From: an uncultured Candidatus Saccharibacteria bacterium | Lineage (GTDB): Bacteria; Patescibacteriota; Saccharimonadia; CAILAD01; GCA-016700035 | Length of the DNA: 64,000 bases | Reading direction: 5' to 3' | NCBI GenBank assembly: GCA_964583675.1 | Contig: CAZOVH010000001.1 | Location: 81,754-145,753, forward strand | Part shown: positions 18,162-56,660 of the stretch, one piece after another | Position numbering within the stretch: position 1 is the stretch's first letter | Layout of the letters: each line of letters starts with the position of its first letter | Notes under the pieces: generated by a model | The model's database searches: none | Seen by the model: only the letters and a program-made list of their open reading frames with translations | What the model was told of the DNA's origin: nothing | Translations under genes and position numbers: made by a program

Positions 18162-18360
18162 TATGCCCTCCTGGGCTCTTGAAAAGGAGACCACCAACTG
18201 GCCTCCGGATACCTATTACCCTCGTCTGACACGCAAACTACAGGTAACCGGAGGCCTTATTTCCAAACACTTTGTCAAATAACAACTTGATAAAATCAGA
18301 TTACCAAGTCGCTATAGTATAGCAAATTATAGGCTTTTTGTCAATGTATTATGACAAGTT

Positions 18361-39064: not shown

Positions 39065-39157
39065 GGAGAGGTACCCAAGTGGCTGAAGGGGCTGGTTTGC
39101 TAAACCGGTAGGTCGGGGAAACCTGGCGCGAGGGTTCGAATCCCTCCCTCTCCGCCA
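39065..39157 (+). tRNA. tRNA-Ser (anticodon GCT)
   Basis: GGAGAGGTACCCAAGTGG... with anticodon loop TTGCTAA, a long variable arm, GGTTCGAATCC and CCA encoded. Confidence 0.85.
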
Positions 39158-39184
39158 TGATGAACAGATACGTGTCTGCTGATC

Positions 39185-39969: not shown

Positions 39970-39971
39970 CG

Positions 39972-39977
39972 TATAAT
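39972..39977 (+). promoter_or_regulatory. -10 box TATAAT upstream of tRNA-Ser(TGA)
   Basis: cgtataatc motif 24 nt upstream of the tRNA start. Confidence 0.3.
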
Positions 39978-40000
39978 CTATGCGTTCCACTTAAAAACAC

Positions 40001-40090
40001 GGAGAGGTGTCCGAGTGGTTGAAGGAACTGGTCTTGAAAACCAGCAGGCGTGAAAGCGTCTCGTGGGTTCGAATCCCACCCTCTCCGCCA
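40001..40090 (+). tRNA. tRNA-Ser (anticodon TGA)
   Basis: GGAGAGGTGTCCGAGTGG... with anticodon loop CTTGAAA, a long variable arm and CCA encoded. Confidence 0.85.
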
Positions 40091-40121
40091 GCAATTATTT
40101 GATTCAAAAAAGGATCTCACC

Positions 40122-40445
40122 ATGAAAAAGCATATGCACGGCTTTATGGATTTTATTCGCGAGCAAGGCGTTGTCGGGCTCGCCGTTGGTTTTATTCTAG
40201 GCGCAGCGGTTGCTAAAGTGGTATCTTCGCTCGTTAACGACATTGTTAACCCGTTTGTGGGCCTTGCACTAGGCTCTGCCGATGGACTGAAGGCCGCAAA
40301 CGTAAAAGTGGCTGGAGCCACCGTTGCCTACGGTAATTTTTTGGCTACTTTGCTCGACTTCGCAATCATCGCAGCAGTCGTGTATTTAGGCGTAAAAATC
40401 CTCGGCCTTGACCGACTTGATAAGAATAAAGACGACAAAAAATAG
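40122..40445 (+). CDS. mscL: large-conductance mechanosensitive channel
   Basis: ATG at 40122 (MKKHMHGFMDFIREQGVVGLAVGFILGAA...). MscL signature and length (107 aa). The track ORF started earlier, inside the tRNA. Confidence 0.8.
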   Translation: MKKHMHGFMDFIREQGVVGLAVGFILGAAVAKVVSSLVNDIVNPFVGLALGSADGLKAANVKVAGATVAYGNFLATLLDFAIIAAVVYLGVKILGLDRLDKNKDDKK

Positions 40446-40501
40446 CGTAAAAGCTTGAGGGCTTTGCCCTTTTTTAGTAATTGCGAGATAATGGCGATAA
40501 C

Positions 40502-41041
40502 ATGCAGCCAGATACTCAAGCCCCAGAAGAAGAGCAAATAGACGAGCAGCTTCCAGAAGATGCTATCACAGAAAATCAACCGGACGAAGTCTTATTGCAG
40601 TGGCAGGTCCAGGATACAGCCCCTGAGCACAAGAGCACTCTTTGGTATGTGGTACTTGGCCTCATTGCCGCCATCATTATCGTTATCGCTATCTTCACTC
40701 AGACTTGGTTCGTGATCCCACTCGGTATCCTTGTGCCTTGGGCGCTATCACTCTATACCAATCGCGGTATTGGCGATCACAACTATGAGCTTGCTACGTT
40801 TCACGCATCTGTTGATGGCAAAATTCATGCTTACACGAACTTTAAGTCATTCTTTGTTGTTACAACAGGGAAACTTACAACTTTTGAGCTGGTGCCCGCT
40901 AAGCGCTTTGGGCAGCTCATAACACTCCACGCTAACGATGCTGAAGTCGAGGATGTGTCTGACATCCTCACGTCCGTACTCCCCGAAACCGAGCCGCAAG
41001 GCTACGTCGGAGAGTCATTCTTTAATCGCTTGAAGTTTTAG
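40502..41041 (+). CDS. hypothetical membrane protein (about 179 aa)
   Basis: Acidic N-terminus, two TM helices and a soluble C-terminal domain. Confidence 0.4.
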   Translation: MQPDTQAPEEEQIDEQLPEDAITENQPDEVLLQWQVQDTAPEHKSTLWYVVLGLIAAIIIVIAIFTQTWFVIPLGILVPWALSLYTNRGIGDHNYELATFHASVDGKIHAYTNFKSFFVVTTGKLTTFELVPAKRFGQLITLHANDAEVEDVSDILTSVLPETEPQGYVGESFFNRLKF

Positions 41042-41105
41042 CCCTTTACGAATCAGGGGAAATTAGGTAAAATAACCTCTGCTTTTTGTACCTTACATTT
41101 TGTGC

Positions 41106-41182
41106 GCGCTCGTAGCTCAGTTGGATAGAGCGTTGGTTTGCGGTACCAGAGGTCGCAGGTTCGAATCCTGCCGAGCGCACCA
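41106..41182 (+). tRNA. tRNA-Arg (anticodon GCG by eye)
   Basis: GCGCTCGTAGCTCAGTTGGATAGAGCG... with A20 in the D-loop, anticodon loop TTGCGGT, GGTTCGAATCC and CCA encoded. Confidence 0.7.
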
Positions 41183-41724
41183 TAATTATTTTCTTGTGAA
41201 TTCGGGAGGGGAATAATCCTTTCTCGATCACACCAGAAAAGTCTGGTAAGTTCATGAGATCCCGCGTGTCCCTAAGAGGAAGTGAGCCTCACCGCCTCAC
41301 GAAAGCGTAAGTCGGTCATATGGGTTTGTTAACGACCAAGCCCTATGGCGCCAAGGAACTTCGCTGCACAGAGGATCGGCAGCTGTATCTGCCCTGCTGG
41401 GCTCGTAGAAGCTCGCGGTGGATGCAGCCGTTTCGCACCTTAATACATGCAACAATTCTGGGATAAGCAACGCCCAGACGTTCGACGACAAGGCCACCCC
41501 AGCTTCGGCTTAGGTGTGCTCACAGGAATCGGGGATCCCCTGCATGTCGAACGAATAACCCCGGCATTCCTGTGATGCACACCACTGACACAGCGGATTA
41601 GATACCCGCGCCGTCACACAAGGTGGTAAGGAGGAGCATCGTCCTCCGTTGGTAACCCAGCAACCGCGGAAGTACCAACGAAAACGTAGAGATTGGGGTG
41701 CCAGGACACCCCTCTCTCGACCAA
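41183..41724 (+). other. structured noncoding spacer with colinear 16S rRNA-like conserved motifs (possible mini-16S relic/pseudogene)
   Basis: Contains GCTCGCGG...CCTTAATACATGCAA, CTGCATGTCGAACG, an exact GGATTAGATACCC, CGCCGTCACAC and GGTAACC..AACCGCGG, in 16S order, within 540 nt and with many hairpins. Confidence 0.3.
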
Positions 41725-41797
41725 GCACAGATAGCTCAGTTGGTAGAGCATTCGCCTGAAAAGCGGAAGGTCGAAGGTTCGAACCCTTCTCTGTGCT
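41725..41797 (+). tRNA. tRNA-Phe (anticodon GAA)
   Basis: GCACAGATAGCTCAGTTGGTAGAGC... with anticodon loop CTGAAAA and GGTTCGAACC. CCA is not encoded. Confidence 0.8.
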
Positions 41798-41801
41798 CGA
41801 T

Positions 41802-41874
41802 ACCCCCGTAGCTCAGCGGAAGAGCGTCCGATTCTTAACTCGGAAGGTCGCGAGATCAATACTCGCCGGGGGTG
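41802..41874 (+). tRNA. tRNA-Lys (anticodon CTT)
   Basis: Acceptor ACCCCCG/CGGGGGT and anticodon loop TTCTTAA. Unusual T-loop ATCAATA (A54). CCA is not encoded. Confidence 0.65.
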
Positions 41875-41900
41875 CAGGGCTAATGTGAGCCTTAATCACA

Positions 41901-41971
41901 CGGGCTATAGCTCAGAGGTAGAGCTGCCAGCTGGGTGCTGGTGGTCACAGGTTCAAGTCCTGTTAGCCCGA
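41901..41971 (+). tRNA. tRNA-Pro (anticodon GGG by eye; T at position 37 is unusual)
   Basis: Acceptor CGGGCTA/TAGCCCG, anticodon loop CTGGGTG and GGTTCAAGTCC. Confidence 0.55.
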
Positions 41972-42056
41972 CAACTGACTTCCACTCTCGTTGTTTTTGT
42001 AGCAGCGCCGCCAACGCTGCTCTCTGCTTGCAGAAAGCAAGGAAACGGGAAGTCAG

Positions 42057-42134
42057 GCGGGGGTAGCTCATGGGAGAGCAACTTGGGTGAAAGCCCGAGG
42101 AGGTACGTGGGTTCAAATCCCACCCCCTGCACCA
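42057..42134 (+). tRNA. tRNA-like gene with atypical 18-nt anticodon arm (identity unresolved; possibly Phe-like GAA with extra nucleotide, or pseudo-tRNA)
   Basis: Acceptor GCGGGGG/CCCCTGC, D-arm GCTCATGGGAGAGC, T-arm GTGGGTTCAAATCCCAC and ACCA encoded. The anticodon region CTTGGGTGAAAGCCCGAG is one nucleotide too long. Confidence 0.4.
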
Positions 42135-42566
42135 CCACACCTTCAGTCGGCGAGGTAAGTGGACCACTGCCTCTAGAGAGGCCTCCATTGGACCCCTCTC
42201 GAACCCAGTGGTGTGTGCCTTAAAATCAGACCGAGTCTCGTGAAAACGGGGCAAAGACAGTTTGTGGCACACTCGGGTAGCACGTCTTTCACACAGACGA
42301 AGGCCCCGAAAGACAAGCCGACGCTCGGTAAAATCCGGACACCACGAGACGCAAAACGTAAATGGAAGACACATAGCACAAGTCCGGTCCCTCATGCCAG
42401 CTTCGGCAAAAATGAGGCAACGCAAGTTGATGCATGCGACGGCATGCGCTGCACCATACCGAAGCGTGGCGATAGAAGCTCGCCTCGCTGAAAGCCTTCG
42501 GGCCGTAAAAGTTGGTGTGGCACCCGCCGGTCGGGGAGAGGTCCCCGGCCGGCACTTCTTTTTTAC
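42135..42566 (+). ncRNA. structured RNA / leader (about 430 nt) ending in a strong intrinsic terminator; T-box-like UGGCACC element immediately 5' of the terminator
   Basis: No credible ORF. Multiple long-range complementary segments. GGTGTGGCACCCGCCGG overlaps the 5' strand of the terminator. Confidence 0.25.
42526..42566 (+). terminator. intrinsic terminator (gccggtcgggga-gaggt-tccccggccggc + CTTCTTTTTT)
   Basis: 12-bp GC-rich stem followed by a T-run, 67 nt upstream of the ATG at 42633. Confidence 0.7.
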
Positions 42567-42632
42567 TCACAGTTTGCCCTCAGTATTCTTTTTTCGCTAT
42601 AGTGATTGCAACACTTACTAAAAGGAAAACTT

Positions 42633-43319
42633 ATGGCTACCACAAAAACCCCTCCCGTCGTTACGGCAACTACCTCTACCGCCACCACAGCAGCAGCATC
42701 AAATTACCCTGGAGCATTTGGCCTGTTTAAGCCAAGTAGCCAAGCAATCCGCCTAGCGTTTGTGCCACTCTTGCTCATATACGTAATCCTTTTTGCGATC
42801 GGCATAGTTGTTGGCATATTCAGCGGAGGCAATAAAGATCTGGCCGATTCACTTGGCAGTATCCTCAATATCGTCTCACAGGTTATCACCATCCCAATGT
42901 TTTCGTTCATTATCTTGTATGCGGTACGCGGTACACGCAAAGAACTTCGAGAATCGTTTGACTACGCCACTCAAAACATTTTGCGTTTCTTTGTAGCTAA
43001 CCTGCTTTCTATTCTGGCGGTCCTTGGGGGACTCATCCTGCTAGTAATCCCTGGAATTCTCATTGCGATGAAGTTCTCCATGGTAAATTACATCTTGGTG
43101 GATAACCCTAAGATGAGCGGCACAGAAGCACTTTCAAGAAGCTGGGATATGACAAAGGGCCACATGGGCAAAATCTTTGGGATCATTGGCGTTTCTATTC
43201 TTATGCTGCTGCCTATTATTACTATCGTAGGTATCATCGCTACTGTTATCCTGCTCGTACTCTACGCAGCAGCCATGCCTGTGCTCTACAACTACCTTGT
43301 CGGCAAACAAAAAGCCTAA
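42633..43319 (+). CDS. polytopic membrane protein (228 aa)
   Basis: ATG at 42633 with SD AAGGA. Thr/Ala-rich N-terminus followed by about 6 TM helices. Confidence 0.5.
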   Translation: MATTKTPPVVTATTSTATTAAASNYPGAFGLFKPSSQAIRLAFVPLLLIYVILFAIGIVVGIFSGGNKDLADSLGSILNIVSQVITIPMFSFIILYAVRGTRKELRESFDYATQNILRFFVANLLSILAVLGGLILLVIPGILIAMKFSMVNYILVDNPKMSGTEALSRSWDMTKGHMGKIFGIIGVSILMLLPIITIVGIIATVILLVLYAAAMPVLYNYLVGKQKA

Positions 43320-43388
43320 CCAAGCTAGCTCAAACCTAGAAAAACTGTAAAAATCAGGTATAATATTCCAGTTCGACCTCAGCTATCT

Positions 43389-43479
<91 letters not shown>

Positions 43480-44167: not shown

Positions 44168-44575
44168 ATGCTAAAAGCTATGCAGCTCATACGAAAGCTC
44201 AAACAACATGACATCATTCCTTTATGGAGTAATCTACCGTTCTATATTCCGGCTGGCCTCGCCATACAAAAAGGCCTGCTCTGGTATGGTTTACTCATCG
44301 CGCTCGCAACAACCGTATCGCTGTATTATCATCACACCGATGAAACCGCCCTCAAAAAAACCGACCGCGTACTAGCCTACTCAGTAATTGTTGCCAACTT
44401 ATACGTCTTACACCTCAGCGGCTGGAAGCAACCATACTTCGCAATCGCACTAATTTTTGTGGCCATAGCCTTTTACTTCTTTTTTCATGGTCGTGGAGCC
44501 AAATACGACCTCTATCACGGCCTCTGGCACCTGAGTTCGGTAGTTATCACCATGATGTGCGTTTTAGCCTACTAG
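44168..44575 (+). CDS. membrane protein (135 aa, 4 TM)
   Basis: ATG at 44168 (MLKAMQLIRK...). Hydrophobic helices with His-rich loops. Confidence 0.4.
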   Translation: MLKAMQLIRKLKQHDIIPLWSNLPFYIPAGLAIQKGLLWYGLLIALATTVSLYYHHTDETALKKTDRVLAYSVIVANLYVLHLSGWKQPYFAIALIFVAIAFYFFFHGRGAKYDLYHGLWHLSSVVITMMCVLAY

Positions 44576-45228
44576 CGCTTTGCTACAGCCGCCACAAACA
44601 CCGGCCCTGAACCAGCCAATTTCAACACTCGCGCACACTCAGTAACAGTAGCGCCCGTAGTCACAACGTCATCAATGAGTAATATCCGCTTATCTTCGAG
44701 TAATGCTGAATGCTTGGTAGAAAAATTGCCCTTTACCTGCCGCCAGCGCGCCTCGCGACCAGCACCAACCTGCGGTGTGTGGACCGTGCGAGATAGGAGT
44801 TCAACATATGGCTTGCGAGAAATTCGCGATAATTCACGAGCAATCAATTGCGGGGCTACATAGCCACGCTCACGTCTTCGAGACGATGTATCGGGTACAA
44901 AAGTAATGAGATCATAATAGGGAAGTTCTGCCAACGAAAGCTTTCTCGCAAGAACGCTCGCGATATCTTCGCGGCCTTCGTATTTCAGCCCTTGAACCAC
45001 ACCTTCAACCTGGCCTTGGTAGTTCCATAAAATAGTTGCTCGACGCACGCGCGTTCGCCATTGACAACTGGAGCACACCTGCCCATCAGATGTTATTGCG
45101 TTACATAAATAGCATGCATTCTGATGTTTTTCTAAGCCTCCGCTACATGCATTACACAGCCCCGAGCCTTCATCGTTGCATAAAACACAACAGCTAGGAA
45201 CCAGTAACCTGGAAATAAGTTTCAACAA
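44572..45228 (-). CDS. comF: ComF family protein (competence protein F; PRTase fold with N-terminal zinc ribbon)
   Basis: N-terminal CxxC...CxxC, PRTase motif ILLIDDVVTTGAT and ComFC-like length. Confidence 0.7.
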   Translation of the reverse strand: MLKLISRLLVPSCCVLCNDEGSGLCNACSGGLEKHQNACYLCNAITSDGQVCSSCQWRTRVRRATILWNYQGQVEGVVQGLKYEGREDIASVLARKLSLAELPYYDLITFVPDTSSRRRERGYVAPQLIARELSRISRKPYVELLSRTVHTPQVGAGREARWRQVKGNFSTKHSALLEDKRILLIDDVVTTGATVTECARVLKLAGSGPVFVAAVAKR

Positions 45229-45302: not shown

Positions 45303-45737
45303 ATGGCTCGTAAGCACAATCCAGACGAAGAGATTTTGCAGGACGAATTCCTCGATGACACCTCAAGCACTTCTGATGAGTGGATGGGGGAGGAAGAATT
45401 TGAAGGGCAGCTTGCTGTCGACGTATATCAAACTAAAGACAGCGTTGTTGTAAAAGCACCGATTGCTGGTGTTCGATCAGAAGATATTGATATCGCAATT
45501 TCTGAAGACGTCATGACAATTCGTGGTGATCGTAAAGAAGAAGTAATTGTAGAAAAAGAGCACTACTACGTACAAGAATGCTTCTGGGGTTCATTCTCTC
45601 GCTCAATTATCTTGCCTACCTCAACTATCGCCGAGAAGGCGCAAGCAACCCTTAAAGACGGTGTACTCACCGTAACAGTTCCGAAGGTTGTACAAGAAGA
45701 TAAGGTTAAGAAGATTAAGGTTAAGCCAGTCGCTTAA
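45303..45737 (+). CDS. Hsp20/alpha-crystallin family small heat shock protein
   Basis: 144 aa. ACD core with GVLTVTVPK. Confidence 0.8.
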   Translation: MARKHNPDEEILQDEFLDDTSSTSDEWMGEEEFEGQLAVDVYQTKDSVVVKAPIAGVRSEDIDIAISEDVMTIRGDRKEEVIVEKEHYYVQECFWGSFSRSIILPTSTIAEKAQATLKDGVLTVTVPKVVQEDKVKKIKVKPVA

Positions 45738-45781: not shown

Positions 45782-46042
45782 TTAGTGCTTACGAAATCGC
45801 TTCCAAAATAGCAGAGTAGCTACCGGTAAAAGAGCTAATAAAATCAGGAGTATCCACGCCAAGAGGGTAGGGGAGCAGACCGGTGCTGGAGCTCCTATCA
45901 TCTCGCATTGAACCCCAGTACAATCTATCGGTGGCGATACACAGTTTTTAAAGTCATAACTCCACCATATTTGTAACATCACCCAAAACACAGGCACATA
46001 GCTTACGGCAGTAATAAGATATGCTTTTTTGAGAGGCTTCAT
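45782..46042 (-). CDS. small membrane protein (86 aa), coupled to upstream SBP gene
   Basis: 4-nt overlap with the stop of 46039..47391. Two hydrophobic helices, Trp- and Cys-rich. Confidence 0.4.
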   Translation of the reverse strand: MKPLKKAYLITAVSYVPVFWVMLQIWWSYDFKNCVSPPIDCTGVQCEMIGAPAPVCSPTLLAWILLILLALLPVATLLFWKRFRKH

Positions 46043-47391
46043 TTTCTCGGGTAACTTACAATAATGTCGGTGGCTCGACGTTCGAGATTCTTAACCGCCA
46101 ACTGCGGATCTAACCCTGAGAGCACACTTACTGTAGCGTCATAGAAATACCCATTCATTTCCTTATCGTTACCACGGTAAAACGTCTGGGCAGAACTTAT
46201 CTGTGAGGCGAACGGACCGATCATTGCATCGCCATCTTGAGCACTTATAAGGTCTTTTCGACTTGTCGGCCTAAGTGTTTCTGAGTTAAATTTCTTCTGA
46301 TTGTCTTTGGTGGCTGCAAATCGAATAAAGTCCCATGCTATTTCTGAGTTTGATGAATTTTTATTCACCATCTCAACCCAGTATTGTGCAAAGTTTATCT
46401 CTTTTTGGTCTTTTATCTGTGGAAGTTTGGCCATCTTAAATTCTAAGCCCTGGTTAAACTGCTTTACCTCGGTAGCCTTAAATGGATAATTGATCATCAT
46501 CGCCACCTTACCTTCGGCAAAAGCCTTCACGGTATAACCAAGCGTATCTTGAAAAGCATAGTTCTGCTTCTTGGGGTTAGCGAAGCTGGTGTAATACTCC
46601 ATTGCTTTAGCTCCAGAAGCGTAGCCGCTCGCATCTGGCTGAGCAAATGTGGCTTTAGTTGGTGGTTCATCTGTCATACTCGCCCCGTTTTGCAACATGA
46701 GTGCAGACTGGATGTCGACTGACTGATGCACAAACGGGGTGCCTAGCGCCGCCCCAGATTGCGTAATAGTTTCACCTTCCCGCTTAGTAAGCTTTCGGCT
46801 CGCCTCCGTAAACTCATCCCAGTTTTTCGGGACTCCAACATTGGCCTCCTTGAGCAGCGCGGGATTGTAGTAAAGTCCTAGGGTAGAAACTCCGTATGTT
46901 ACGCCGCGAATCTTACCGTCATACAATAATCTTTGCGTAGCAGCATCAACAAAAACATCTTTATATACCTTCTCGGTATATACCGTATCTGGAGCCGGTG
47001 TGGAGTAATCTACATAGCGCGGCATCCAATCATTCAGTACCGAATATATGTCTGGTAGGTTGCCTGTTTGGGCCGCCTGAGCCAGCTCTGCATCGTAACT
47101 GCCGTAATCAATATCACGTATCTCAATCTTTACGTTTGGGTGAAGTTTTTGAAATTGATCGATAATAGGCTGCATATACCGAGCTTCATCCCATGTGCGC
47201 CAGTAGGTGAGAGTTACTTGTTTTGATTCATCGTACACGACACGACTTTCACTATCAGCAGGAGCAAGAACAGCACCAAGTCCACTCTTATCTGATTGCG
47301 TGTCGGCTGGACGTGTAGCTAAATAGAGAAACCCAGCTGCACCAAGTATGATAACAGCAACTACGCACCAAAAAAGAATTCGCTTAAGCAT
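46039..47391 (-). CDS. ABC transporter substrate-binding protein (family 1, sugar-type)
   Basis: ATG at 47391 (MLKRILFWCVVAVIILGAAG...). SBP_bac_1-like length and composition. No permease or ATPase is adjacent. Confidence 0.65.
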   Translation of the reverse strand: MLKRILFWCVVAVIILGAAGFLYLATRPADTQSDKSGLGAVLAPADSESRVVYDESKQVTLTYWRTWDEARYMQPIIDQFQKLHPNVKIEIRDIDYGSYDAELAQAAQTGNLPDIYSVLNDWMPRYVDYSTPAPDTVYTEKVYKDVFVDAATQRLLYDGKIRGVTYGVSTLGLYYNPALLKEANVGVPKNWDEFTEASRKLTKREGETITQSGAALGTPFVHQSVDIQSALMLQNGASMTDEPPTKATFAQPDASGYASGAKAMEYYTSFANPKKQNYAFQDTLGYTVKAFAEGKVAMMINYPFKATEVKQFNQGLEFKMAKLPQIKDQKEINFAQYWVEMVNKNSSNSEIAWDFIRFAATKDNQKKFNSETLRPTSRKDLISAQDGDAMIGPFASQISSAQTFYRGNDKEMNGYFYDATVSVLSGLDPQLAVKNLERRATDIIVSYPRK

Positions 47392-47457
47392 TACAACTAT
47401 TGTACCAAACCAAAAACGCCCCAAGGGGCGCATTGGCTTCTATGATAAAGGTTTTAC

Positions 47458-47835
47458 TTAAAACTGCGCGAGTACGAAGTTTACAATTGCGTAGCCAAGG
47501 AGCGCTACAACAATACCAACCACCGCATAAAGAATGGTGTCTTTAGCGGCCTGGGTGTTTTTAGAATCTCCACCGGAAAGAACATAACGCAAGCCGCCAA
47601 CTACCAGCATAATAACTGCAGCAACGCCTACGATGTAGAGTAGTATGTTCGTAACACGCCCCACAGCCTGCGGGACAGTTAGGGGACTAGCCGGACCACA
47701 CTCTACGCCGCTGTTCAGGCCGCCAGCTGGATCACCGCACGCAGCCAAAGCACGCCCTGGTAGCTGTAATACTGCGGAGACAGCAGATGCACCCAAGACC
47801 GATACCTTTAAAACTGAGTTGCTAGTAAACTTCAC
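47458..47835 (-). CDS. TrbC/VirB2-like pilin (125 aa)
   Basis: Signal peptide, Cys pair, two TM helices and the C-terminal motif NTQAAKDTILYAVVGIVVALLGYAIVNFVLAQF. Confidence 0.6.
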   Translation of the reverse strand: MKFTSNSVLKVSVLGASAVSAVLQLPGRALAACGDPAGGLNSGVECGPASPLTVPQAVGRVTNILLYIVGVAAVIMLVVGGLRYVLSGGDSKNTQAAKDTILYAVVGIVVALLGYAIVNFVLAQF

Positions 47836-47850
47836 GAAAACCTAGGATTT

Positions 47851-48228
47851 TTACGCTGCAAACTGACCGAGTACAAAGTTAACAATCGCATAGGCAAGAA
47901 GGGCTACAACGATACCGATAACCGCATAAAGAATGGTGTCTTTAGCAGCCTGGGTGTTTTGTGAGCTACCACCAGAGAAGATGTAACGGAAACCACCAAC
48001 GATGAGCATAATCACCGCAACTACACCAATAACAAAGAGCATGGTGTTGGTGATGGTTTGAATATTTGCTACAAGATCAGTCTGCTGATCGTCACCCTTA
48101 GCAGCACTTGCACCTTCGTTAATTCCGCCTACTGCGGCTGAAGCGTGTCCTGCAAGTGAAGCTGCCACTACGGCATTACCAGCCAGCACGAGTGAACCTT
48201 TTTTAAGTAAATCTTTTGCATTACGCAT
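47851..48228 (-). CDS. TrbC/VirB2-like pilin paralog (125 aa)
   Basis: Same architecture and a near-identical C-terminal motif (NTQAAKDTILYAVIGIVVALLAYAIVNFVLGQF). Confidence 0.6.
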   Translation of the reverse strand: MRNAKDLLKKGSLVLAGNAVVAASLAGHASAAVGGINEGASAAKGDDQQTDLVANIQTITNTMLFVIGVVAVIMLIVGGFRYIFSGGSSQNTQAAKDTILYAVIGIVVALLAYAIVNFVLGQFAA

Positions 48229-48363
48229 ATTGTGTATTGTCTCCTTGACTTCTAATAATAGCTAAGTGGGCGAGTGCACACTACTAGGCACATTCTACTG
48301 CAAGGAGAGATATATCAGCAAGCGTTATGGGCAAAATTCTTATGCTTGCACTAAGAAAAGTCT

Positions 48364-48924
48364 TTAACGGAACTGGGCACTTACAAAGCTTATGATGGCC
48401 GTCCCGAGCAGTGCAACGCCCACGCCAATGACTGCGTAGAGAATCGCATCTTTTGCTGTCTTCGTCTTACCAGGATCACCAGCAGATGTTACGTACAGGA
48501 TTCCGGAAACGATAATCATAATCACCGAAGCCGCGCCAATCACCCACAAGAATAGCTGAATGCCAGAATTAACCACGCTTTGAACATTTGTAGCACCCGC
48601 AACAACCGGCAAGAAGAAATCAACAACTGCACGCGCAATTATCGCAATCACAAAACCAATTACGGTATAAATAATTGACTGAATTGCCAGCTTAGTTCGG
48701 TCAGGACGTCCGGCAGAAATTACAAACATAAAACCCGAGTACACAATCATTACTACGCCAACTACACCAACTACCCAAAGTAGGAAAGTAAAAAGATTAT
48801 TTACCAGCTGGGGAAGTGTGGCTGGACCACTGGCAAACTGAGTCGGTTTATACGTTGGCAAAGGCAAATTCGTCGCCTCTGCCGCGACATACAGCTTAAT
48901 CCCTAGTTCCTGAAAAACATTCAT
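48364..48924 (-). CDS. tandem double-domain VirB2-like pilin (186 aa)
   Basis: Two consecutive pilin-like units (RTKLAIQSIIYTVIGFVIAII... and KTKTAKDAILYAVIGVGVALLGTAIISFV). Confidence 0.55.
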   Translation of the reverse strand: MNVFQELGIKLYVAAEATNLPLPTYKPTQFASGPATLPQLVNNLFTFLLWVVGVVGVVMIVYSGFMFVISAGRPDRTKLAIQSIIYTVIGFVIAIIARAVVDFFLPVVAGATNVQSVVNSGIQLFLWVIGAASVIMIIVSGILYVTSAGDPGKTKTAKDAILYAVIGVGVALLGTAIISFVSAQFR

Positions 48925-48929
48925 GCCAT

Positions 48930-49790
48930 TTATCCCGTTATTACTCTGCCAATTAAACTAAATATCAGACTAACAGAAGCAACTCCAAGTAAGCCGATTA
49001 CCGCATACGTAATGATCTTACGGGCGGACTGAATAGATTGTGGGTTTCCAGCAGCGGTCATCATTCTTATACCACCAACAATTATCATCGTTACAGCCAG
49101 CGCGCCACCTATAAATTGTATGTACTGCCAAGCTGCCGCAATCAACTCAAGGATGGTGTTTTGATCAAAGTTATTGAGATCTACCCCTAAAAAGCGTCCT
49201 CCGCCAGTCACACCAATAAGATCGAGCGTTACGCGGGCTGCAAAGAAGAGCGCAATGCTCGAAGCGGCCAACGTAATACGTTTCTTGCCAGCCTTAAGTG
49301 CTTCTGGCGATGCACCACCGGTAATAACCTGCACCATGCCAAGCCCAATCATAATCGCAAAGACAATTACGCCAATATTCAAAATATAGTTTGTGAGATT
49401 TTCTACTATTGACTGAATCGCAGTCTGGTCATTGCCTCCAGTACACAGAGTAGACACAAAGCCACTACTAATAATTTGCCCATCAGCCTTAATGTCGTTA
49501 CACGTACCCTTAACAGACTGTGGGTTGTTGAGTCGCTCATTTTCGGCATTCGTACTTGTGCCATTACCAACTGGCTCGCTCCGAGCTGGACCTTTCGTTC
49601 CTGGAGGGAGATTCTCAGAACATACCAGCGCACCATCAGCGCCTTCTTTATATGTTCCGGCGGCTCCACCCGTCAAAGTACAGGGCTGTCCAGCTAGCTT
49701 TGCAGGGTCGGCATATGCCACTGGCGCAGTATATATATGTAGGGCGAGAAGGAGAGTGGCTGGCAATAAGTACGCAAGGCGGCTTTTCAT
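48930..49790 (-). CDS. secreted Cys-containing domain fused to two VirB2-like pilin units (286 aa)
   Basis: Signal peptide, an extracellular domain of about 120 aa with 4 Cys, then two pilin-like TM hairpin units (KKRITLAASSIALFF..., ARKIITYAVIGLLGVASVSLIF). Confidence 0.5.
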   Translation of the reverse strand: MKSRLAYLLPATLLLALHIYTAPVAYADPAKLAGQPCTLTGGAAGTYKEGADGALVCSENLPPGTKGPARSEPVGNGTSTNAENERLNNPQSVKGTCNDIKADGQIISSGFVSTLCTGGNDQTAIQSIVENLTNYILNIGVIVFAIMIGLGMVQVITGGASPEALKAGKKRITLAASSIALFFAARVTLDLIGVTGGGRFLGVDLNNFDQNTILELIAAAWQYIQFIGGALAVTMIIVGGIRMMTAAGNPQSIQSARKIITYAVIGLLGVASVSLIFSLIGRVITG

Positions 49791-49832: not shown

Positions 49833-52800
49833 ATGAATATTCTTTCCAAAAAACTGAATATATTTCAGCAGGGGGCGCTGTTTGGCGCTGTTTTTTTCCT
49901 TTTATTTTTAGTTTCTATTTTAGTTGCGCCATCAGCGAAAGCAGGACCAAATAGCCCTACTGAATATGAAGGGTCTGATTCTACTCAATGCCAGTGGGTG
50001 GCCGACTCAAAAATTGTCTGCGGTACAGGGGAGTGGTGGTTTGATATTAATCAATCAGTATCTCTTGGCTATCCGGTATATAAAAGTTCTGACACCTCTA
50101 ATTCGTACATAGTTTTTGATAGCAATGGTGAAAATGGTGAGCTCACAAAAGACCCTGCTCAAAAAACAAACGGGACTGATGCATTTTTAGGAGAAAAACA
50201 GGTACGTAATAATCGCCTGTGGGCAAATGACGACAACTCTAGCGACCCAGTTGATAACGGCATGAGTGCACCACCTAACGGTGAGCATTATTATTGTGGC
50301 CTAAAATCCAAGACTGAAGAGGAATGCTTCGATGGGAGGGGCGGCTCACTTATAAAAGTCACTCAAGATCAGGGCGATAAAATTACGGCCATGCGCGATC
50401 AAATAGAAGAAACAATAGGTTCAGAAGAAGATTGCACAGAAGATGCAGGCTCATTAGGTTTTGTACTGTGTCCAATACTGAGCACCACACGCAATGCGGT
50501 TGGTGCACTCATTGGAGACGGAACGGGTAAAGGGTTTCTAGTCGAACTACTTACTATAAGACCCTTAAGCTCCACGAATACGCCAGAGCTCTACAATGGG
50601 TGGCAGGCTGTAAGAAATATTGCATTAGGCCTATACATTTTAGTCTTTGTATTAATTATTTTTGGTAACGGTATTGGCTATGACCCCTACACGATTAAGA
50701 GAGCGCTGCCTCGACTGGCAGCCGGCGTTGTTTTAACATTTGCCTCTTGGTGGATCATGCAAACACTTGTAGATCTATCAAACCTTGTAGGCAATGTTAT
50801 CCCCGCATTTGTGGCACAGATTTCAGGTAATGCCGGAATTGCAGACTACGCAATCGACCTAAACCCTGCCCTTGCCTTGAGCTCCGTAATCCTCCTAATT
50901 GTGGTTGCTTTTATCGCCCTTGGAGCCTTGCTAGTTGGTCTTGCCGGTTTAATTATGCGCATCGTGATTATTTATGCTCTCGTACTTTTAGCCCCTGTCG
51001 CGTTTATTGCCTGGGTACTCCCAAACACAGAAGGCCTCTTTAAGAAGTGGTGGAAAAACCTTATTAAGGTACTCATGATGTTCCCGATAGTTACAGGCAT
51101 GCTCTCTCTTTCATTGTTCTTCCAGACCATCCTACTCAATACGCAAACAGACGCTGCTGGCAACAGTAATGGATTAGGAGGGTCAGCCTCCAACTCGGTA
51201 ACCGGTATTGTTGGTATGCTTGCACCACTCATAGCAATTATCATGATCCCTAAAACCTTTAAATGGGGCGGTGAAGCCTTTGCTGCAGCAGCTGGATATA
51301 TGGCAGGAAAGGCAAGTGGAGTTGCAGGTAAAATATCTGATGCACCCAAAACAATCGGAGGCAAAGCTGCAGGTAGTGCAAAAGAACGTATGCTCGCAAG
51401 CGACAAAACTGCTGCCCTCACTGGCGCAATGGCCTCTAGTCGATTGGGTCGACTTGCGGGCGGTAAAGCCGCCATGAGATCAAGTGGTAGAGCAAGAAGC
51501 AGGGTTATTGGCGAGGCAGAAAGCCTAACAAAGAATATGACAAACGACCAGCTTGAAAAGATCGCTAAAACCGGCACACAAGAAGAGAGAATTGCCGCAA
51601 TTGGCCAGCTCGCAAAACGCAAGGATAGAGGTAAGCTCGCCTCCTTATCGCAGGCAGGCGGTAAAACTGCAAGAGCTTATGACGAAGCTAGTAGTAGGCA
51701 TGCTGGTGAGTTTGGAGGCAATGCTGACCTGCGCCGCATCGGCGGTAAATTCACGAACGTTGGAGACATGTCTACCGAAGATGCGGCCGGAATGAATGCA
51801 GACGGTTTCGCCGCAGGACTCGCAACAGGTGCAATATCTCACGCCACTGCGCAAGCAATCTACAATAATGACCGTACCCGAGCATCTCTTTCGCCTCAAA
51901 AACTACATGACCTTACAACATATTTATCATCTGGAGGAACAACCGACAAGGATGGAAATAGAATTACAGTACAAGGCAGAAACTCTCGCGTTGCCGATGC
52001 AAAAATAGAAGCAACCACTCCTAGTTACAATGCAGAAGGCAAGCATGTCGGCCAGAGAGTTACGTTTAAGGGTGATTCTGAATTACAAAATGCCCTCAAT
52101 GTAGCTGGATCAAATCGAGGCGTAACCACCACATCTGCTAGTGGTACTCCTCAGCCCACAGCAACTACCGCTCCAGCACGTCCAGCTCCACCACCACCTC
52201 CACCATCAGGAGGAACTCCAACTTATACTACCCCTGCGGGCGCACCAACCTACACAACAACGGGTACGCCAGTTCCACCACCACCAAGTGGCAATGTGCC
52301 AGTTTGGAGCAATCCAACTGCACCACCACCTCCGCCGCCAAGCGGTAGCACTGGTGGAACACCTCCGCCTTACACAGGCCCAGCTGCGCCATGGCAGCCG
52401 GCTCCCGGTTCGCAAACACCGCCTCCACCACCAAGTGGAGGGGCACCTACCGGCACGAACGGTGGAGGCACAGTCATAAACAATGTCACCAACGAAAATT
52501 CAACGACGAATAACAACTCGACCACCAACAACGTAAAAACCGTTCTCAACAACAACGGCATACCAAGTTCGATTGCGCTTGGTGCAGCCACACAGCTTGG
52601 AAGTGCCAAAAATCGCTTCGGAGCAGGATCAGCCGAACACGACGGCCTAGCCGGCATTGAAAGTAAGCTCAATGATCTGGGTCGTATGATTCAGTCCGGA
52701 TCACTCAGTCAAACTCGATTGCGAGAAAATATCCGTGACATCCACCGCGATATTGATGACCTACCACCAGGTGCACATGACCAACAAGATAACCTACGTG

Positions 52801-52847
52801 GCGTCCTCACAAACATCGAGCGCAATGCCACCGACGACGAGGCGTAA
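49833..52847 (+). CDS. VirB6/TrbL/PrgH-like polytopic T4SS channel protein with long Pro-rich and Asn/Thr-rich C-terminal extension (1004 aa)
   Basis: Signal peptide, an extracellular Cys-containing domain of about 250 aa, at least 6 TM helices (residues about 270-480), then a disordered tail with PPPPPSG repeats. Confidence 0.55.
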   Translation: MNILSKKLNIFQQGALFGAVFFLLFLVSILVAPSAKAGPNSPTEYEGSDSTQCQWVADSKIVCGTGEWWFDINQSVSLGYPVYKSSDTSNSYIVFDSNGENGELTKDPAQKTNGTDAFLGEKQVRNNRLWANDDNSSDPVDNGMSAPPNGEHYYCGLKSKTEEECFDGRGGSLIKVTQDQGDKITAMRDQIEETIGSEEDCTEDAGSLGFVLCPILSTTRNAVGALIGDGTGKGFLVELLTIRPLSSTNTPELYNGWQAVRNIALGLYILVFVLIIFGNGIGYDPYTIKRALPRLAAGVVLTFASWWIMQTLVDLSNLVGNVIPAFVAQISGNAGIADYAIDLNPALALSSVILLIVVAFIALGALLVGLAGLIMRIVIIYALVLLAPVAFIAWVLPNTEGLFKKWWKNLIKVLMMFPIVTGMLSLSLFFQTILLNTQTDAAGNSNGLGGSASNSVTGIVGMLAPLIAIIMIPKTFKWGGEAFAAAAGYMAGKASGVAGKISDAPKTIGGKAAGSAKERMLASDKTAALTGAMASSRLGRLAGGKAAMRSSGRARSRVIGEAESLTKNMTNDQLEKIAKTGTQEERIAAIGQLAKRKDRGKLASLSQAGGKTARAYDEASSRHAGEFGGNADLRRIGGKFTNVGDMSTEDAAGMNADGFAAGLATGAISHATAQAIYNNDRTRASLSPQKLHDLTTYLSSGGTTDKDGNRITVQGRNSRVADAKIEATTPSYNAEGKHVGQRVTFKGDSELQNALNVAGSNRGVTTTSASGTPQPTATTAPARPAPPPPPPSGGTPTYTTPAGAPTYTTTGTPVPPPPSGNVPVWSNPTAPPPPPPSGSTGGTPPPYTGPAAPWQPAPGSQTPPPPPSGGAPTGTNGGGTVINNVTNENSTTNNNSTTNNVKTVLNNNGIPSSIALGAATQLGSAKNRFGAGSAEHDGLAGIESKLNDLGRMIQSGSLSQTRLRENIRDIHRDIDDLPPGAHDQQDNLRGVLTNIERNATDDEA

Positions 52848-52849
52848 TT

Positions 52850-53689
52850 ATGGGGCAATATAAAGTACCTCAAAACGTAGAGAGCGAAGACAGACTCCTA
52901 GGCCCCTTAACGATGAAGCAATTCATCTACGCTATCATTGGGCTCGGGTGGGGATTCCTTATTTGGCGTATTCTTTCACCGGGAGGCACTGCTGCAATCC
53001 CTATCATGCTACTACTCATTGTGCCGGTTTCTGGTTTTATGCTCCTCTTGGCATTCGGTAAAAGGGAGGAGCAGAGTTTTGAGAATTACCTCATCGCCCT
53101 CATTCGTTTTAGTGTTGTACCGCGCAAACGCATTTGGCTAAAAGACGACTTTAAGGGTGAGGTGATTATCGATGCACCGCCGCCGCCAAAGCCCATGGCG
53201 CCAACTAAAGAAGATATCGCCCATGTTCACAGTCGACTTCAGCAGCTCTCGCTAGTTGTAGACACGCGTGGACACGCCAAGACTCCAGATGTTCAGCTGG
53301 CCGACCAAACAAATCGGGCTGCGGAATTTTCTCAACGCGTTTTTACACCGCCAGAACTCCAAAAGCCCATCCTGGAAGGGGGAGTACAAGAACAAGATGA
53401 CGTATTAGCAACAACAGAAGCGTCAGCCGCTCAAGCGCAAAAAGTTGATGAGCTACTACAAAACCAAGAGTACTCGATTCGTGAAGAGGCTATGAAAAAG
53501 ATGACTCAGGCCGTCGAAAATCCCGAATCTCAGGCCGTCGAAACCCCTACACAACCCTCCCAGCCACCAGCTGATAATGCTATACTGAAAAAGGTTATGG
53601 ATGCACCCCACCTAAGTGTGGCCCAGGTAGCCCAAGTGGCTAATCGTGGGCAACTCGCACAAGGCCAGGAAATCCAAATCCAACAATAA
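52850..53689 (+). CDS. PrgI/VirB3-like T4SS membrane protein (279 aa)
   Basis: N-terminus MGQYKVPQNVESEDRLLGPLTMKQFIY plus two TM helices, matching the conserved PrgI-family start (VP.D.E.ED...GP.T.RQ). Confidence 0.5.
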   Translation: MGQYKVPQNVESEDRLLGPLTMKQFIYAIIGLGWGFLIWRILSPGGTAAIPIMLLLIVPVSGFMLLLAFGKREEQSFENYLIALIRFSVVPRKRIWLKDDFKGEVIIDAPPPPKPMAPTKEDIAHVHSRLQQLSLVVDTRGHAKTPDVQLADQTNRAAEFSQRVFTPPELQKPILEGGVQEQDDVLATTEASAAQAQKVDELLQNQEYSIREEAMKKMTQAVENPESQAVETPTQPSQPPADNAILKKVMDAPHLSVAQVAQVANRGQLAQGQEIQIQQ

Positions 53690-53835: not shown

Positions 53836-54753
53836 ATGCCACAGGAGGCTGCCAAAACTCCACAACAAATTGAATATGAAAAGTCGATCACTCCCGCCAA
53901 GGAGCCGAAAGACCAACGTACCAGCACGCAAAACCACCTGATGTTCACCGAAATTAAGGATGGCATCGTCGTAATGCGTGATGGCTCTTTGCGTATGGTC
54001 GTACTTGCGAGTGCACTCAACTTTGACCTCAAAAGCCCCCAAGAACAGGATGCTATCGAGTACGCATACCAAGGCTTCCTTAATGGCTTACACTTTCCAA
54101 TTCAGATTGTTGTACGCTCACGTAAGCTCGAGCTTGACGGCTACCTTGAAAACCTTGAAGTTCTTCAAGCCAACCAAGAAAACCCTCTTCTAGCTGGACT
54201 AATGGAAGATTATATTTACAATATTCGCGGCCTCTTAGAACAAGTAAACATCATGAATAAAGAATTCTATGTTGTTGTACCGTATTATCTGGATGTTACC
54301 TCTAAAAAGAAAGATAATGCCGGCTTTAAACTTGCGAGCTTATTTAAGACCAACACCGATACCATGCAAACCACGGAGATGTTTGAGCAGCGTAAGCGAG
54401 ACTTAATTCAACGTACCAACCTGGTTGCCCAAGGCTTGGCTCAGCTTGGTATTCGAGCAGCTGTTCTCTCCACACAGGAGATTACTGAGCTCTTCTATAC
54501 GGCGTATAACCAAGAAGAAGCTACCAATCAAAATCTTGTAGATATCGAGCAAATGACGACGCCGGTTGTAGAACGTAGTGATGCCGATCCAGAACCATAT
54601 AGCGGCGCAACCTATCATGAGCCAGAGCCTGACGATCTATACTCTGCTGCCACGCAAATACCTCAGCCAGCACCAGCACCAACGCAACAAACTACGCAGC
54701 CACCAGTAGCTCAGCAGCCACCGCAAAATCCACTAATTGGGGGAGGGGTATAA
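53836..54753 (+). CDS. hypothetical T4SS-associated protein (305 aa), translationally coupled to virB4 (TAATG)
   Basis: SD GAGGGAGAGAGAAG. The stop overlaps the virB4 ATG. Gln/Pro-rich C-terminus. Confidence 0.4.
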   Translation: MPQEAAKTPQQIEYEKSITPAKEPKDQRTSTQNHLMFTEIKDGIVVMRDGSLRMVVLASALNFDLKSPQEQDAIEYAYQGFLNGLHFPIQIVVRSRKLELDGYLENLEVLQANQENPLLAGLMEDYIYNIRGLLEQVNIMNKEFYVVVPYYLDVTSKKKDNAGFKLASLFKTNTDTMQTTEMFEQRKRDLIQRTNLVAQGLAQLGIRAAVLSTQEITELFYTAYNQEEATNQNLVDIEQMTTPVVERSDADPEPYSGATYHEPEPDDLYSAATQIPQPAPAPTQQTTQPPVAQQPPQNPLIGGGV

Positions 54754-56660
54754 TGGCGCGCAAACCAAAAGTAGATCCAGCTCAGCAGGCAGCCATCGAC
54801 ATGGCTGCGGCCCAACAGCAAGAAGCTGAACGTGCCTATCGCGAAGGAATCTTAACTCTACGTGACATTATTGCGCCAAGCTCGTTTACTATAGAGAACA
54901 ATTATCTCATTATTGGCACTCGCTATGTGCGCACATTGTTTGTGTACGGCTATCCACGCACCCTATTTACCGGTTGGCTCTCGCCAATTATCAACCTCGA
55001 TGAGGTTATTGATATTTCGCTCAATATCATGCCGGTCGAAAGTCGTGTAGTACTTGAGAACCTCAAGAAAAAAGTAGGTCAACTCGAAGCCTCTGTGCAA
55101 ATTAACGCCGAAAAAGGTAAGATTCGCGATCCAGGACTAGAAGCTGCCATTGGTGACGCCGAAGAACTTCGTGACAAGCTCCAAGTAGGTGAAGAACGCT
55201 TCTTCCGTTTTGGGCTTTACATCACGCTCTACGGAAAGGATATCGAGGAACTCGATCTTATTCAACGCAAAATTGAATCCATCCTCGGAACAAGCCTCGT
55301 CTACACAAAACCAGCTAGCGTTCAGATGGAGCAGGGCTTTAACTCGACGCTCCCAATTGGCACCGATCAGCTTGGCATCTACCGCAACATGAATACCGGC
55401 TCACTCTCAACCAGTTTTCCGTTTACCACCGCCGAACTCTCTCGCAATGAAGGGGTTATGTATGGCTTAAACCGCCACAACAACGGTCTAGTGCTATTTG
55501 ATCGATTTAGCTTAGAAAATGCCAATATGGTTGTATTTGCAAAGTCTGGTTCTGGTAAAAGCTTTACCGTAAAGCTCGAATGCTTACGCTCACTTATGTT
55601 GGGTGCGGAAATTATTATCATCGATCCAGAGAACGAGTACCGCACACTGTGTGACGCAGTAGGCGGGAGCTACATTCACTTGTCGCTCGCCAGCAACACG
55701 CGCATTAACCCGTTTGATATTCCAACCACGGTTGATCCCGAGGAAGCCGACAACGCACTGCGCGCAAACATCATCATGCTGCACGGCTTACTGCGCCTGA
55801 TGTGTGGCAAGCTTGAGCCAGCAGAAGAAGCAGATTTGGATGTTGCGCTTATCAATACGTATGCCCAAAAAGGCATCACCAACGATCCGCTGACACACCG
55901 TAGCCAGCCACCTGTAATGAGCGATTTGTATAACACACTTATCACAATGGGTGGCACCGGCCCAGCAATCGCCGCTCGTCTACGTCGCTACACCGAGGGT
56001 ACGTTCTCTGGAATCTTCTCGCAACAATCAAACGTTCAACTCGACAATAAATTTGTAGTCTTTAATATTCGCGACCTAGAAGATGAACTACGCCCAATTG
56101 GCATGTATATCACCCTCAACTACATTTGGAACCGCGTAAAAACCGACCGACGTAAGCGCATCTTAGCTGTAGACGAAGCTTGGCAGCTCATGAAGCATCC
56201 AGACTCAGCATCGTTTATGTTCTCAATCGCTAAGCGCGCTCGTAAGTATTACCTCGGCCTCACAACCATCTCGCAGGACGTGGAAGACTTCTTAAATGAT
56301 CGCCTGGGACGTGCCGTAGTAAACAACAGCTCTTTGCAAGTTCTCCTAAAACAAGCACCGTCCGCTGCCGATGTTGTTGCCGAAACATTCAAGCTAACGA
56401 GCGAAGAAAAAAACCGCCTTACTCAGTTCCCGGTAGGAGAGGGATTATTCTTTGCTGGTTCTAACCACGTGGTTATTCGCATTTTGGCGAGCCCCATGGA
56501 AGAGCAGCTCATCACCACCAATCCGCAGCAACTCCTTGAGCGACAAATGCGCGACCAAGAAGAAGCTCAATTACAAACCGCAGAACCGGCCCCAGAATTA
56601 CAACAGGCAGTTCCAGAACCACCGGCAACCTACCAGCAGCCAGGAGGGCAGGTTAGCTAA
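54753..56660 (+). CDS. virB4: VirB4/TraE/PrgJ-family T4SS ATPase (635 aa, Gram-positive type)
   Basis: N-terminal APSSFTIENNYLIIGTRYVRTLFVYGYPR, Walker A VVFAKSGSGKSF, Walker B ILAVDEAWQLM. Confidence 0.85.
   Translation: MARKPKVDPAQQAAIDMAAAQQQEAERAYREGILTLRDIIAPSSFTIENNYLIIGTRYVRTLFVYGYPRTLFTGWLSPIINLDEVIDISLNIMPVESRVVLENLKKKVGQLEASVQINAEKGKIRDPGLEAAIGDAEELRDKLQVGEERFFRFGLYITLYGKDIEELDLIQRKIESILGTSLVYTKPASVQMEQGFNSTLPIGTDQLGIYRNMNTGSLSTSFPFTTAELSRNEGVMYGLNRHNNGLVLFDRFSLENANMVVFAKSGSGKSFTVKLECLRSLMLGAEIIIIDPENEYRTLCDAVGGSYIHLSLASNTRINPFDIPTTVDPEEADNALRANIIMLHGLLRLMCGKLEPAEEADLDVALINTYAQKGITNDPLTHRSQPPVMSDLYNTLITMGGTGPAIAARLRRYTEGTFSGIFSQQSNVQLDNKFVVFNIRDLEDELRPIGMYITLNYIWNRVKTDRRKRILAVDEAWQLMKHPDSASFMFSIAKRARKYYLGLTTISQDVEDFLNDRLGRAVVNNSSLQVLLKQAPSAADVVAETFKLTSEEKNRLTQFPVGEGLFFAGSNHVVIRILASPMEEQLITTNPQQLLERQMRDQEEAQLQTAEPAPELQQAVPEPPATYQQPGGQVS

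Follow-up and report, generated by a model that had tools for sequence, protein, structure and literature searches.

Two genes of a Saccharibacteria type IV secretion locus each encode two VirB2-like pilin units in tandem

Results

Four pilin genes encode six hairpin units

The window analysed here, a 64,000-nucleotide stretch of an uncultured Candidatus Saccharibacteria genome (GenBank assembly GCA_964583675.1, contig CAZOVH010000001.1), carries on its minus strand, at 47458-49790, four head-to-tail open reading frames (ORFs), designated A, B, C, and D, that encode VirB2-like pilins of a type IV secretion system (T4SS). Two of these are genuine, full-length genes: C and D each encode a four-transmembrane (4-TM) 'double hairpin' in which two PF18895 (T4SS_pilin) units follow one another head-to-tail. 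The genes and their parts are listed below, with helices as predicted and arrows marking the cleavage positions read from putative signal peptides.

48930..49790, minus strand: gene D, 286 aa, an uninterrupted ORF with two PF18895 stretches
D, aa 1-27: signal peptide, …PVAYA↓DP
D, aa 28-~120 (~95 residues): Cys ectodomain with C37, C57, C97, and C116
49206..49430, minus strand: D unit 1 (D1), aa 121-195, helices 124-157 and 162-192, a member of the 'position-1' group
D, aa ~193-209: linker, GVTGGGRFLGVDLNNF
48933..49163, minus strand: D unit 2 (D2), aa 210-286, helices 210-245 and 250-285, motif AGNPQSIQSARKIITYAVIG, best Pfam stretch 210-280
48364..48924, minus strand: gene C, 186 aa, an uninterrupted ORF with two PF18895 stretches
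C, N-terminal tail of 36 aa: no classical signal peptide
48595..48816, minus strand: C unit 1 (C1), aa 37-110, helices 37-69 and 74-110, signature AGRPDRTK…AIQSIIYT
C, aa 111-119: short linker free of lysine and arginine
48367..48585, minus strand: C unit 2 (C2), aa 114-186, helices 114-146 and 151-185, signature AGDPGKTKTAKDAILYAVIG
47851..48228, minus strand: gene B, 125 aa, single-unit pilin, signal peptide …HASA↓A
47458..47835, minus strand: gene A, 125 aa, single-unit pilin, signal peptide …ALA↓A, two-Cys N-terminal loop

C starts 5 nt beyond the stop codon of D. An original prediction, made by a model from the letters alone, had placed two pilin units in each of the ORFs 48364-48924 and 48930-49790 and a single unit in each of the two shorter paralogs (47458..48228), and this division holds: PF18895 matches C and D as two stretches each and A and B as one stretch apiece, with 43.7 (A), 47.4 (B), 72.0 (C), and 66.9 (D) bits, all above the gathering score of 26.6 bits. 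Single-unit proteins match both halves of C (E values of 1e-23 and 2e-18) and both halves of D (3e-12 and 7e-4) in BLASTP comparisons. B also matches PF04956 (TrbC/VirB2) exactly at its gathering score, 27.9 bits, and these family matches, together with the T4SS locus described below, bear out the VirB2-like character that had been proposed.

Alignment of the six units detects the internal repeat as a common plan, namely a transmembrane (TM) helix, a G-G/A-G-D/N-P-x-x-T/S-K loop, an (A)K-D/x-x-I-L/T-Y-A-V-I-G helix, and a terminal N-F-V; similarity is 0.38 between C1 and C2 and 0.21 between D1 and D2, the least similar unit pair in the window. The motif 'KDxILYAVIG…NFV' that the prediction had attributed to the units is sharpest in A, B, and C2; C1 and D2 show a weaker version of it, and D1 a degenerate one. 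Reading of the A-D sequences for n-, h-, and c-regions and AXA-type sites suggests a signal peptide with such a site in A, B, and D and none in C or in most C homologues, and the second units of C and D have no signal peptide of their own. The 'signal/TM-hairpin units' of the prediction thus stand as hairpins, without the signal part in the second units and without a classical one in C. The secreted four-cysteine domain proposed for the N-terminus of D is recovered as a putative signal peptide followed by the four cysteines listed above.

Among NCBIfam models, NF045849 (Mbov_0395) is the nearest named family and the only one to match all four window pilins. It is an 80-position single-unit model with a cut-off of 40 bits, which C passes only through its two units summed (56.3 bits over two stretches), while A (26.2), B (34.8), and D (26.3) score below it; by these scores A-D appear to be related to the family and not equivalogs. 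No Pfam family of type IV pilus (T4P) pilins, such as N_methyl, occurs among the matches at E <= 0.1 for the window proteins, and no class III prepilin leader (G↓F/M-xxxE) is found in the A-D sequences.

Predicted topology resembles that of VirB2

Canonical VirB2, TrbC, and TraA pilins possess one hairpin per polypeptide, sometimes cyclised head-to-tail; C and D each possess two. Like these pilins (PF04956; T-pilus, RP4, and F pili), the window proteins are built on a helical hairpin of ~70-80 aa with a basic inter-helix loop, carry a putative signal peptide (in A, B, and D), and are encoded beside VirB3, VirB4, and VirB6 homologues; unlike them, they join two different hairpins head-to-tail, and do so in a monoderm organism.

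In the TM region of C, all lysine and arginine residues lie within the two intra-hairpin loops (RPDRTK and PGKTKTAK) and none in the linker. By the positive-inside rule this distribution places the loops in the cytoplasm and the termini and linker outside, as in VirB2, and the two-Cys inserts that some C homologues carry in the linker agree with an external position. Hydropathy, the lysine and arginine distribution, and the helices of AlphaFold2 (AF2) models concur in predicting two-TM hairpins with a short basic cytoplasmic loop. The AF2 model of C consists of four long helices (predicted local distance difference test score, pLDDT, of 76), and that of D of four long helices (pLDDT 66) plus a small, low-confidence beta ectodomain. 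A Foldseek search with the C model against the PDB returned nothing at E < 0.5, only generic helical bundles, and a profile search of PDB sequences identified no related solved structure.

Both units and both linkers are conserved

For C, a word-indexed search of 5.8 billion proteins recovered ~28 full-length homologues with two units (166-239 aa, 33-99% identity), and for D 25 homologues (245-311 aa, 41-97% identity); these two-unit proteins are spread over many independent assemblies from different studies and species. In D, the C97/C116 pair is kept in nearly all 25 homologues and the ectodomain motif GTCxDI…G.IIS.GF…LCTG in almost all. The D linker, LDLIGVTGGxRFLGVDLNNF, is nearly invariant across the same set, which suggests a structural element, not a disposable spacer.

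Relative to the locus of the closest genome, L001, the ratio of non-synonymous to synonymous substitution rates (dN/dS) comes to 0.075 for the whole of D and to 0.037 for the whole of C; by unit it is 0.010 (D1), 0.041 (D2), and 0.017 (C1). Synonymous divergence is saturated in C2, which shows 7 non-synonymous differences over 163 sites, and the linkers of C and D show zero non-synonymous changes with synonymous sites near saturation. In both proteins, strong purifying selection acts on the two units and on the linker between them.

The original prediction had itself named a frameshift or hidden stop as the outcome that would undo it, and misassembly, a frameshift, or loss of a stop codon could in principle fuse adjacent single-unit genes, the more so as single-unit pilin genes side by side are the common arrangement in other Saccharibacteria. 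The ORFs are nevertheless uninterrupted, the same two-unit ORFs recur in dozens of independent assemblies (35-99% identity) with dN/dS of 0.04-0.08, unit 2 lacks its own signal peptide, and the linkers are conserved under purifying selection. We rejected a frameshift or assembly artefact on the strength of the cross-assembly conservation of C and D, and its probability is in our view negligible.

Divergence from the closest relative is mosaic within the array (window 47458-49790 against L001 5017-12558). D and C share 71-84% DNA identity with their counterparts (dS 1.2-1.6), A and B share 93-98% (dS 0.10-0.22), and the flanks share 85-95%. Because the differences in the array are almost all synonymous, this pattern looks like inter-lineage recombination rather than relaxed or diversifying selection.

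Multi-unit pilins recur across the PF18895 family

Related loci were collected by scanning one genome per species, and the best 80 of 244 loci, nearly all labelled Saccharibacteria or Saccharimonadia, were analysed. A unit hidden Markov model (HMM) built from the six window units was run over all ORFs of the 80 loci (translation table 11) and identified 437 pilin-like ORFs, comprising 401 with one unit, 35 with two, and 1 with three. Loci typically carry 5-7 single-unit genes in an array. A multi-unit ORF is present in 29/80 loci, a proportion that reflects a sample biased by the two-unit query towards loci with multi-unit ORFs. Fusions at other positions join units 2+3 (L046, L040) and 3+4 (L034), and fusion is a recurrent event.

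A family-wide HMMER scan with a two-unit profile against 1.84 billion cluster representatives (50%-identity clusters) yielded 65,030 matches, 141 of them at E <= 1e-30. The best 150 of the 65,030 matches all possess at least two units by the unit HMM, distributed as follows: two units in 54 proteins, three in 47, four in 19, five in 11, six in 5, seven in 8, eight in 2, nine in 3, and thirteen in 1. Units in the multi-unit proteins are tightly packed, with a median period of 87 aa; 122/409 inter-unit linkers (30%) contain at least two Cys, and lysine plus arginine make up 4.4% of linker residues, figures in line with external linkers.

Two examples, checked at the DNA level, are intact under table 11. 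A 552-aa ORF (L081 1777-3435) encodes six units whose close similarity points to recent internal duplications; it sits among four other pilin genes (125, 215, 150, and 120 aa). A metagenomic 1775-aa ORF (L082 8001-13328; GCA_975902405.1, CDLKIH010000037.1) encodes at least 13 PF18895/TrbC units, and Cys pairs precede many of them. No T4SS genes lie within 8 kb of this ORF, and it adjoins genes for ribosomal protein L39e and a Cas4-like protein, which suggests an archaeon.

The two-unit architecture is unusual for textbook T4SSs, in keeping with the earlier statement that covalently tandem pilins are not a standard T4SS feature, but it is not rare in the PF18895 family (29/80 loci).

An animal-associated group of loci (L049-L073) has a reduced array with a two-unit first gene (L049, L053, L057, L060, L070, and L073); the first gene of L070, a Nanosyncoccus metagenome-assembled genome (MAG), encodes 250 aa with two units, and that of L058 (5761-6786), a goat ileum Saccharibacteria MAG, has three. 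One or two more pilin-like genes of these animal-associated loci are encoded ~0.1-2 kb downstream on the opposite strand (L057 has two).

D arose by fusion of neighbouring genes

Loci of the window clade (L001-L004, L006, and L007) possess 1:1 orthologues of all six units and keep both fusions. A sister group (L024, L028, L031, L021, and L036) possesses only the D-type fusion, and in further relatives (L041, L048, L033, L008, and L044) positions 1 and 2 are separate genes. In a unit tree built by neighbour-joining (NJ) from Poisson distances with bootstrap, which resolves only shallow nodes and the position-1 clade, fused and unfused position-1 units form one clade that includes D1 (93% bootstrap), in line with the best-hit pattern of D1, and the window-clade orthologues of C1 group at 99%. 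Since D1 belongs to a position-1 group with stand-alone members elsewhere, and is the unit least similar to its partner, D is a gene fusion and not an internal duplication. The description of both proteins as 'internally duplicated' thus fails for D, a fusion of adjacent paralogues; for C duplication is possible. C1 and C2 both match best the single third gene of sister loci, and C2 is closer to A (0.47) and B (0.43) than to C1, so that C may derive either from duplication of the third array gene or from its fusion with a neighbour.

Position-specific HMMs were trained on 16 canonical six-gene arrays. Leave-one-out classification is perfect for positions 1, 2, 3, and 6, and the array positions are true orthologue families. 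Hierarchical clustering of 444 units set apart position-1 units only. A simple model of the window array as a '1:1 fusion of the canonical six' was dropped in view of the nearly flat position-HMM scores of the window units.

The pilin array belongs to a T4SS locus syntenic with that of Southlakia epibionticum

A-D belong to the pilin array of a monoderm Saccharibacteria T4SS resembling the mating-pair formation type FATA (MPF-FATA), a system already described for Patescibacteria. In Southlakia epibionticum ML1 (Se ML1), the published gene order runs from the VirB4-like SEML1_0008 through PrgI (0010), large membrane proteins, and the pilins 0014-0019 to Hsp20 (0020), ComFC (0021), and tRNA-Ser (Wang et al. 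2023, PMC10633639). Saccharibacteria need this T4SS and its pilins for epibiotic growth, as transposon sequencing has shown only for Se ML1, where all six pilins, SEML1_0014-0019, scored as essential (Wang et al. 2023, PMC10633639). The window matches Se ML1 in gene order and in the flanking Hsp20, ComFC, and tRNA genes, with A-D transcribed divergently from the T4SS genes.

49833..52847, plus strand: weakly VirB6/TrbL-like polytopic protein, 1004 aa, C-terminal region Pro-rich; sub-threshold PF04610 match (E 0.053); position matches SEML1_0011
52850..53689, plus strand: PrgI-family (VirB3-like) protein; PF12666 at 54.3 bits
53836..54753, plus strand: 305-aa protein, weakly TrsD/TraD-like; NF041427 at E 0.0018, far below cut-off; position matches SEML1_0009
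54753..56660, plus strand: VirB4-like ATPase; NF045971 conju_CD1110 at 379.6 bits (cut-off 325 bits); PF19044, PF01935, and PF12846
56660..61990, plus strand: two large envelope/cell-wall proteins (wall hydrolases), one of 1138 aa with VanY and one of 636 aa with GDSL, phage lysozyme, and M23 (Pfam)
45303-45737: Hsp20 gene
44572-45228: ComFC-like gene
43389-43475, plus strand: tRNA, the last of a cluster, in the position of the Se ML1 tRNA-Ser beside ComFC

As in Se ML1, a VirB4-like ATPase, PrgI, a large VirB6-like protein, a PF18895 array, Hsp20, ComFC, and a tRNA occur together, and the units total six; in Se ML1 they are six separate genes with one PF18895 match each, whereas the window distributes six units over four genes. 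Synteny and the shared number of units mark the four window genes as the counterpart of the essential Se ML1 six-pilin array. The two loci also differ in that Hsp20 directly follows the pilins in Se ML1, whereas in the window a gene for an SBP_bac_1 extracellular solute-binding protein (46039-47433) is inserted between them. The NF045849 family (Mbov_0395/MMCAP2_0565) of Mycoplasma integrative and conjugative elements (ICEs) likewise comes from a monoderm MPF-FATA-type system, and the VirB4 of those elements (Mbov_0397 family) also matches the window VirB4.

Further features were observed around the locus. A small two-TM ORF (45782-46042) also lies between the pilins and Hsp20. The 1004-aa VirB6-like protein ends in a long low-complexity stretch with PPPPPSG-type proline repeats and an N/T-rich part, and nowhere else has the locus diverged as far from L001 (77% identity or unalignable). 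Eight plus-strand tRNA genes are clustered at 39065-43475, just upstream of the T4SS/pilin region. Elsewhere in the window, at 15500-18200, lies a GC-rich island with sharp edges, where GC is 0.59-0.69 as compared with ~0.46 on either side. It contains two minus-strand ORFs without a Pfam match, 16415-17074 (219 aa) and 17199-18197 (332 aa), and may have a foreign source, such as a phage or a high-GC host, or reflect a chimeric assembly.

Discussion

The papers searched describe VirB2-like pilins in no other form than arrays of separate genes. Candidate Phyla Radiation (CPR) genomes carry VirB2-like genes in arrays of 2-11 separate members (Quiñonero-Coronel et al. 2025, PMC12102498), and an array of small signal-peptide proteins has been published for TM7x. 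The CPR arrays are described in terms of separate genes only, whereas the window contains fused units, and in a literature search that was not exhaustive we found no description of PF18895/VirB2 units fused in one polypeptide.

We favour the reading, at a probability of roughly 0.6, that C and D function as uncleaved covalent double hairpins that fix the neighbours of their units in a heteromeric pilus or conduit of the Saccharibacteria T4SS. D originated in a fusion of the first array gene, comprising ectodomain and unit, to the unit after it, the latter losing its signal peptide. Each unit would keep the topology of VirB2, with its N-terminus outside, its basic loop in the cytoplasm, and its C-terminus outside, an arrangement that would place the covalent link on the outer face of the membrane. 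C and D would then enter the T4SS-associated pilus or conduit, possibly as part of a filament, as pre-formed heterodimers, with the fusion keeping two different units side by side at a 1:1 ratio and with the Cys-stabilised ectodomain of D displayed outside. A heteromer with defined order is suggested by the individual essentiality of the Se ML1 pilins, the stable orthologue families found at array positions, and the repeated fusion of adjacent units.

Several points weigh against this reading. That C and D remain uncleaved is something we infer, and the C junction, …FFLPVVAGA↓TN, resembles a signal-peptidase I site, with a small residue often following 'PVA' in homologues. As C lacks a classical signal peptide, its route of membrane insertion is assumed. 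The predicted template modelling (pTM) scores of the AF2 models are low (0.41-0.46), which leaves the mutual packing of the two hairpins uncertain. The position-specific HMMs assigned no window unit to a position, their scores being nearly flat, and the deep nodes of the unit tree, including that bearing on the origin of C, are unsupported. Finally, a pilus of a Patescibacteria T4SS has never been demonstrated according to the literature searched.

The likeness to a signal-peptidase site invites an alternative in which C and D are polyproteins, cut in the external linker by signal peptidase I or another protease into equal amounts of two single-hairpin pilins, such that equimolar co-production would be the benefit of fusion. 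TM2 of unit 1 does run from inside to outside in the manner of a signal peptide, in the C junction, position -6 is a P and positions -3 and -1 are small residues, and P-V-A-x-[S/G/T] is kept there in many C homologues. The motif is nonetheless not conserved, several homologues having Q, H, or N at the would-be -1 (PVAQHQ, PVAQNQ, and PIAAQP), and a conserved signal-peptidase site at the C junction was rejected since it is inconsistently present in the alignment. The D linker possesses no AXA-type site and, unlike a spacer, is nearly invariant over ~20 residues; the two-Cys inserts in some linkers suggest a folded loop; TM2 of unit 1 contains R and D, atypical of a signal-peptide core; and the 6- to 13-unit proteins display no regular cleavage motif. 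We consider such processing improbable. Less probable still is that the paralogues are alternative variants serving immune evasion or host range, a role proposed for the VirB2 proteins of Anaplasma and Bartonella, and that the fusions are neutral accidents of a tight operon. Like the window, those genera have several divergent VirB2 paralogues in tandem, thought to be antigenic or host-range variants, but they are separate genes, unlike the fused and positionally conserved units described here. Versatility has been proposed for CPR arrays (Quiñonero-Coronel et al., PMC12102498), and the D-C segment is far more diverged than A-B between close relatives. That divergence is, however, almost entirely synonymous (dN/dS 0.04-0.08), the fusions persist throughout a clade, the orthologue families at the array positions are stable (with perfect leave-one-out assignment for 1, 2, 3, and 6), and the six Se ML1 pilins, each essential, are not redundant.

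A somewhat stronger, though still unlikely, alternative retains the linked hairpins and changes what they build: by analogy, PF18895 hairpins could form a membrane ring, channel, or platform instead of a filament, with the link joining lateral neighbours. Proteolipids of V- and A-type ATPases occur as duplicated, triplicated, and 13-hairpin c/K subunits. As with these proteolipids, PF18895 units would be small TM hairpins that oligomerise side by side and have been fused repeatedly, from 2 to 13 or more per polypeptide, although no homology is implied and the system and function are different. The 13 or more hairpins of the single 1775-aa polypeptide, with a period of ~87 aa, are hard to reconcile with extraction of single subunits into a pilus; the best ECOD match of SEML1_0018 in a structure-based annotation is the F1F0 ATP synthase subunit c domain (Table S2 of PMC10633639); and monoderm T4SSs are otherwise without pili according to the literature. 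Against this stand the sequence homology to TrbC/VirB2 pilins, which form pili, the N-terminal secreted extensions, including the ectodomain of D, and the consideration that very long proteins may differ in function, the 1775-aa example not lying beside T4SS genes. In its fullest form, and with the same low likelihood, the 'pilins' of Patescibacteria and some archaea would pack their hairpins laterally, in fixed order, into a heteromeric tube or ring, akin to an envelope-spanning proteolipid ring and distinct from a subunit-extracted pilus.

The chief worth of these fusions lies in the natural evidence they offer on unit arrangement in an essential apparatus. The practical impact is moderate, and C and D are already in public databases as hypothetical proteins. 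Evidently a VirB2-type hairpin tolerates head-to-tail linkage, an arrangement topologically related to the cyclisation of T- and P-pilins. For modelling or cryo-electron microscopy, the fusions supply a distance restraint, in that a linker of 3-15 residues must span from the C-terminus of one unit to the N-terminus of its successor. For the six divergent VirB2-like proteins of these monoderm cells, gene fusions serve as 'Rosetta-stone' evidence of physical neighbours and fixed stoichiometry that argues for heteromeric assembly over interchangeable variants. Should the hairpins instead build a tube or ring, the fusions of positions 1+2 and 3+4 would directly report neighbours in the essential conduit through which these bacteria contact their hosts.

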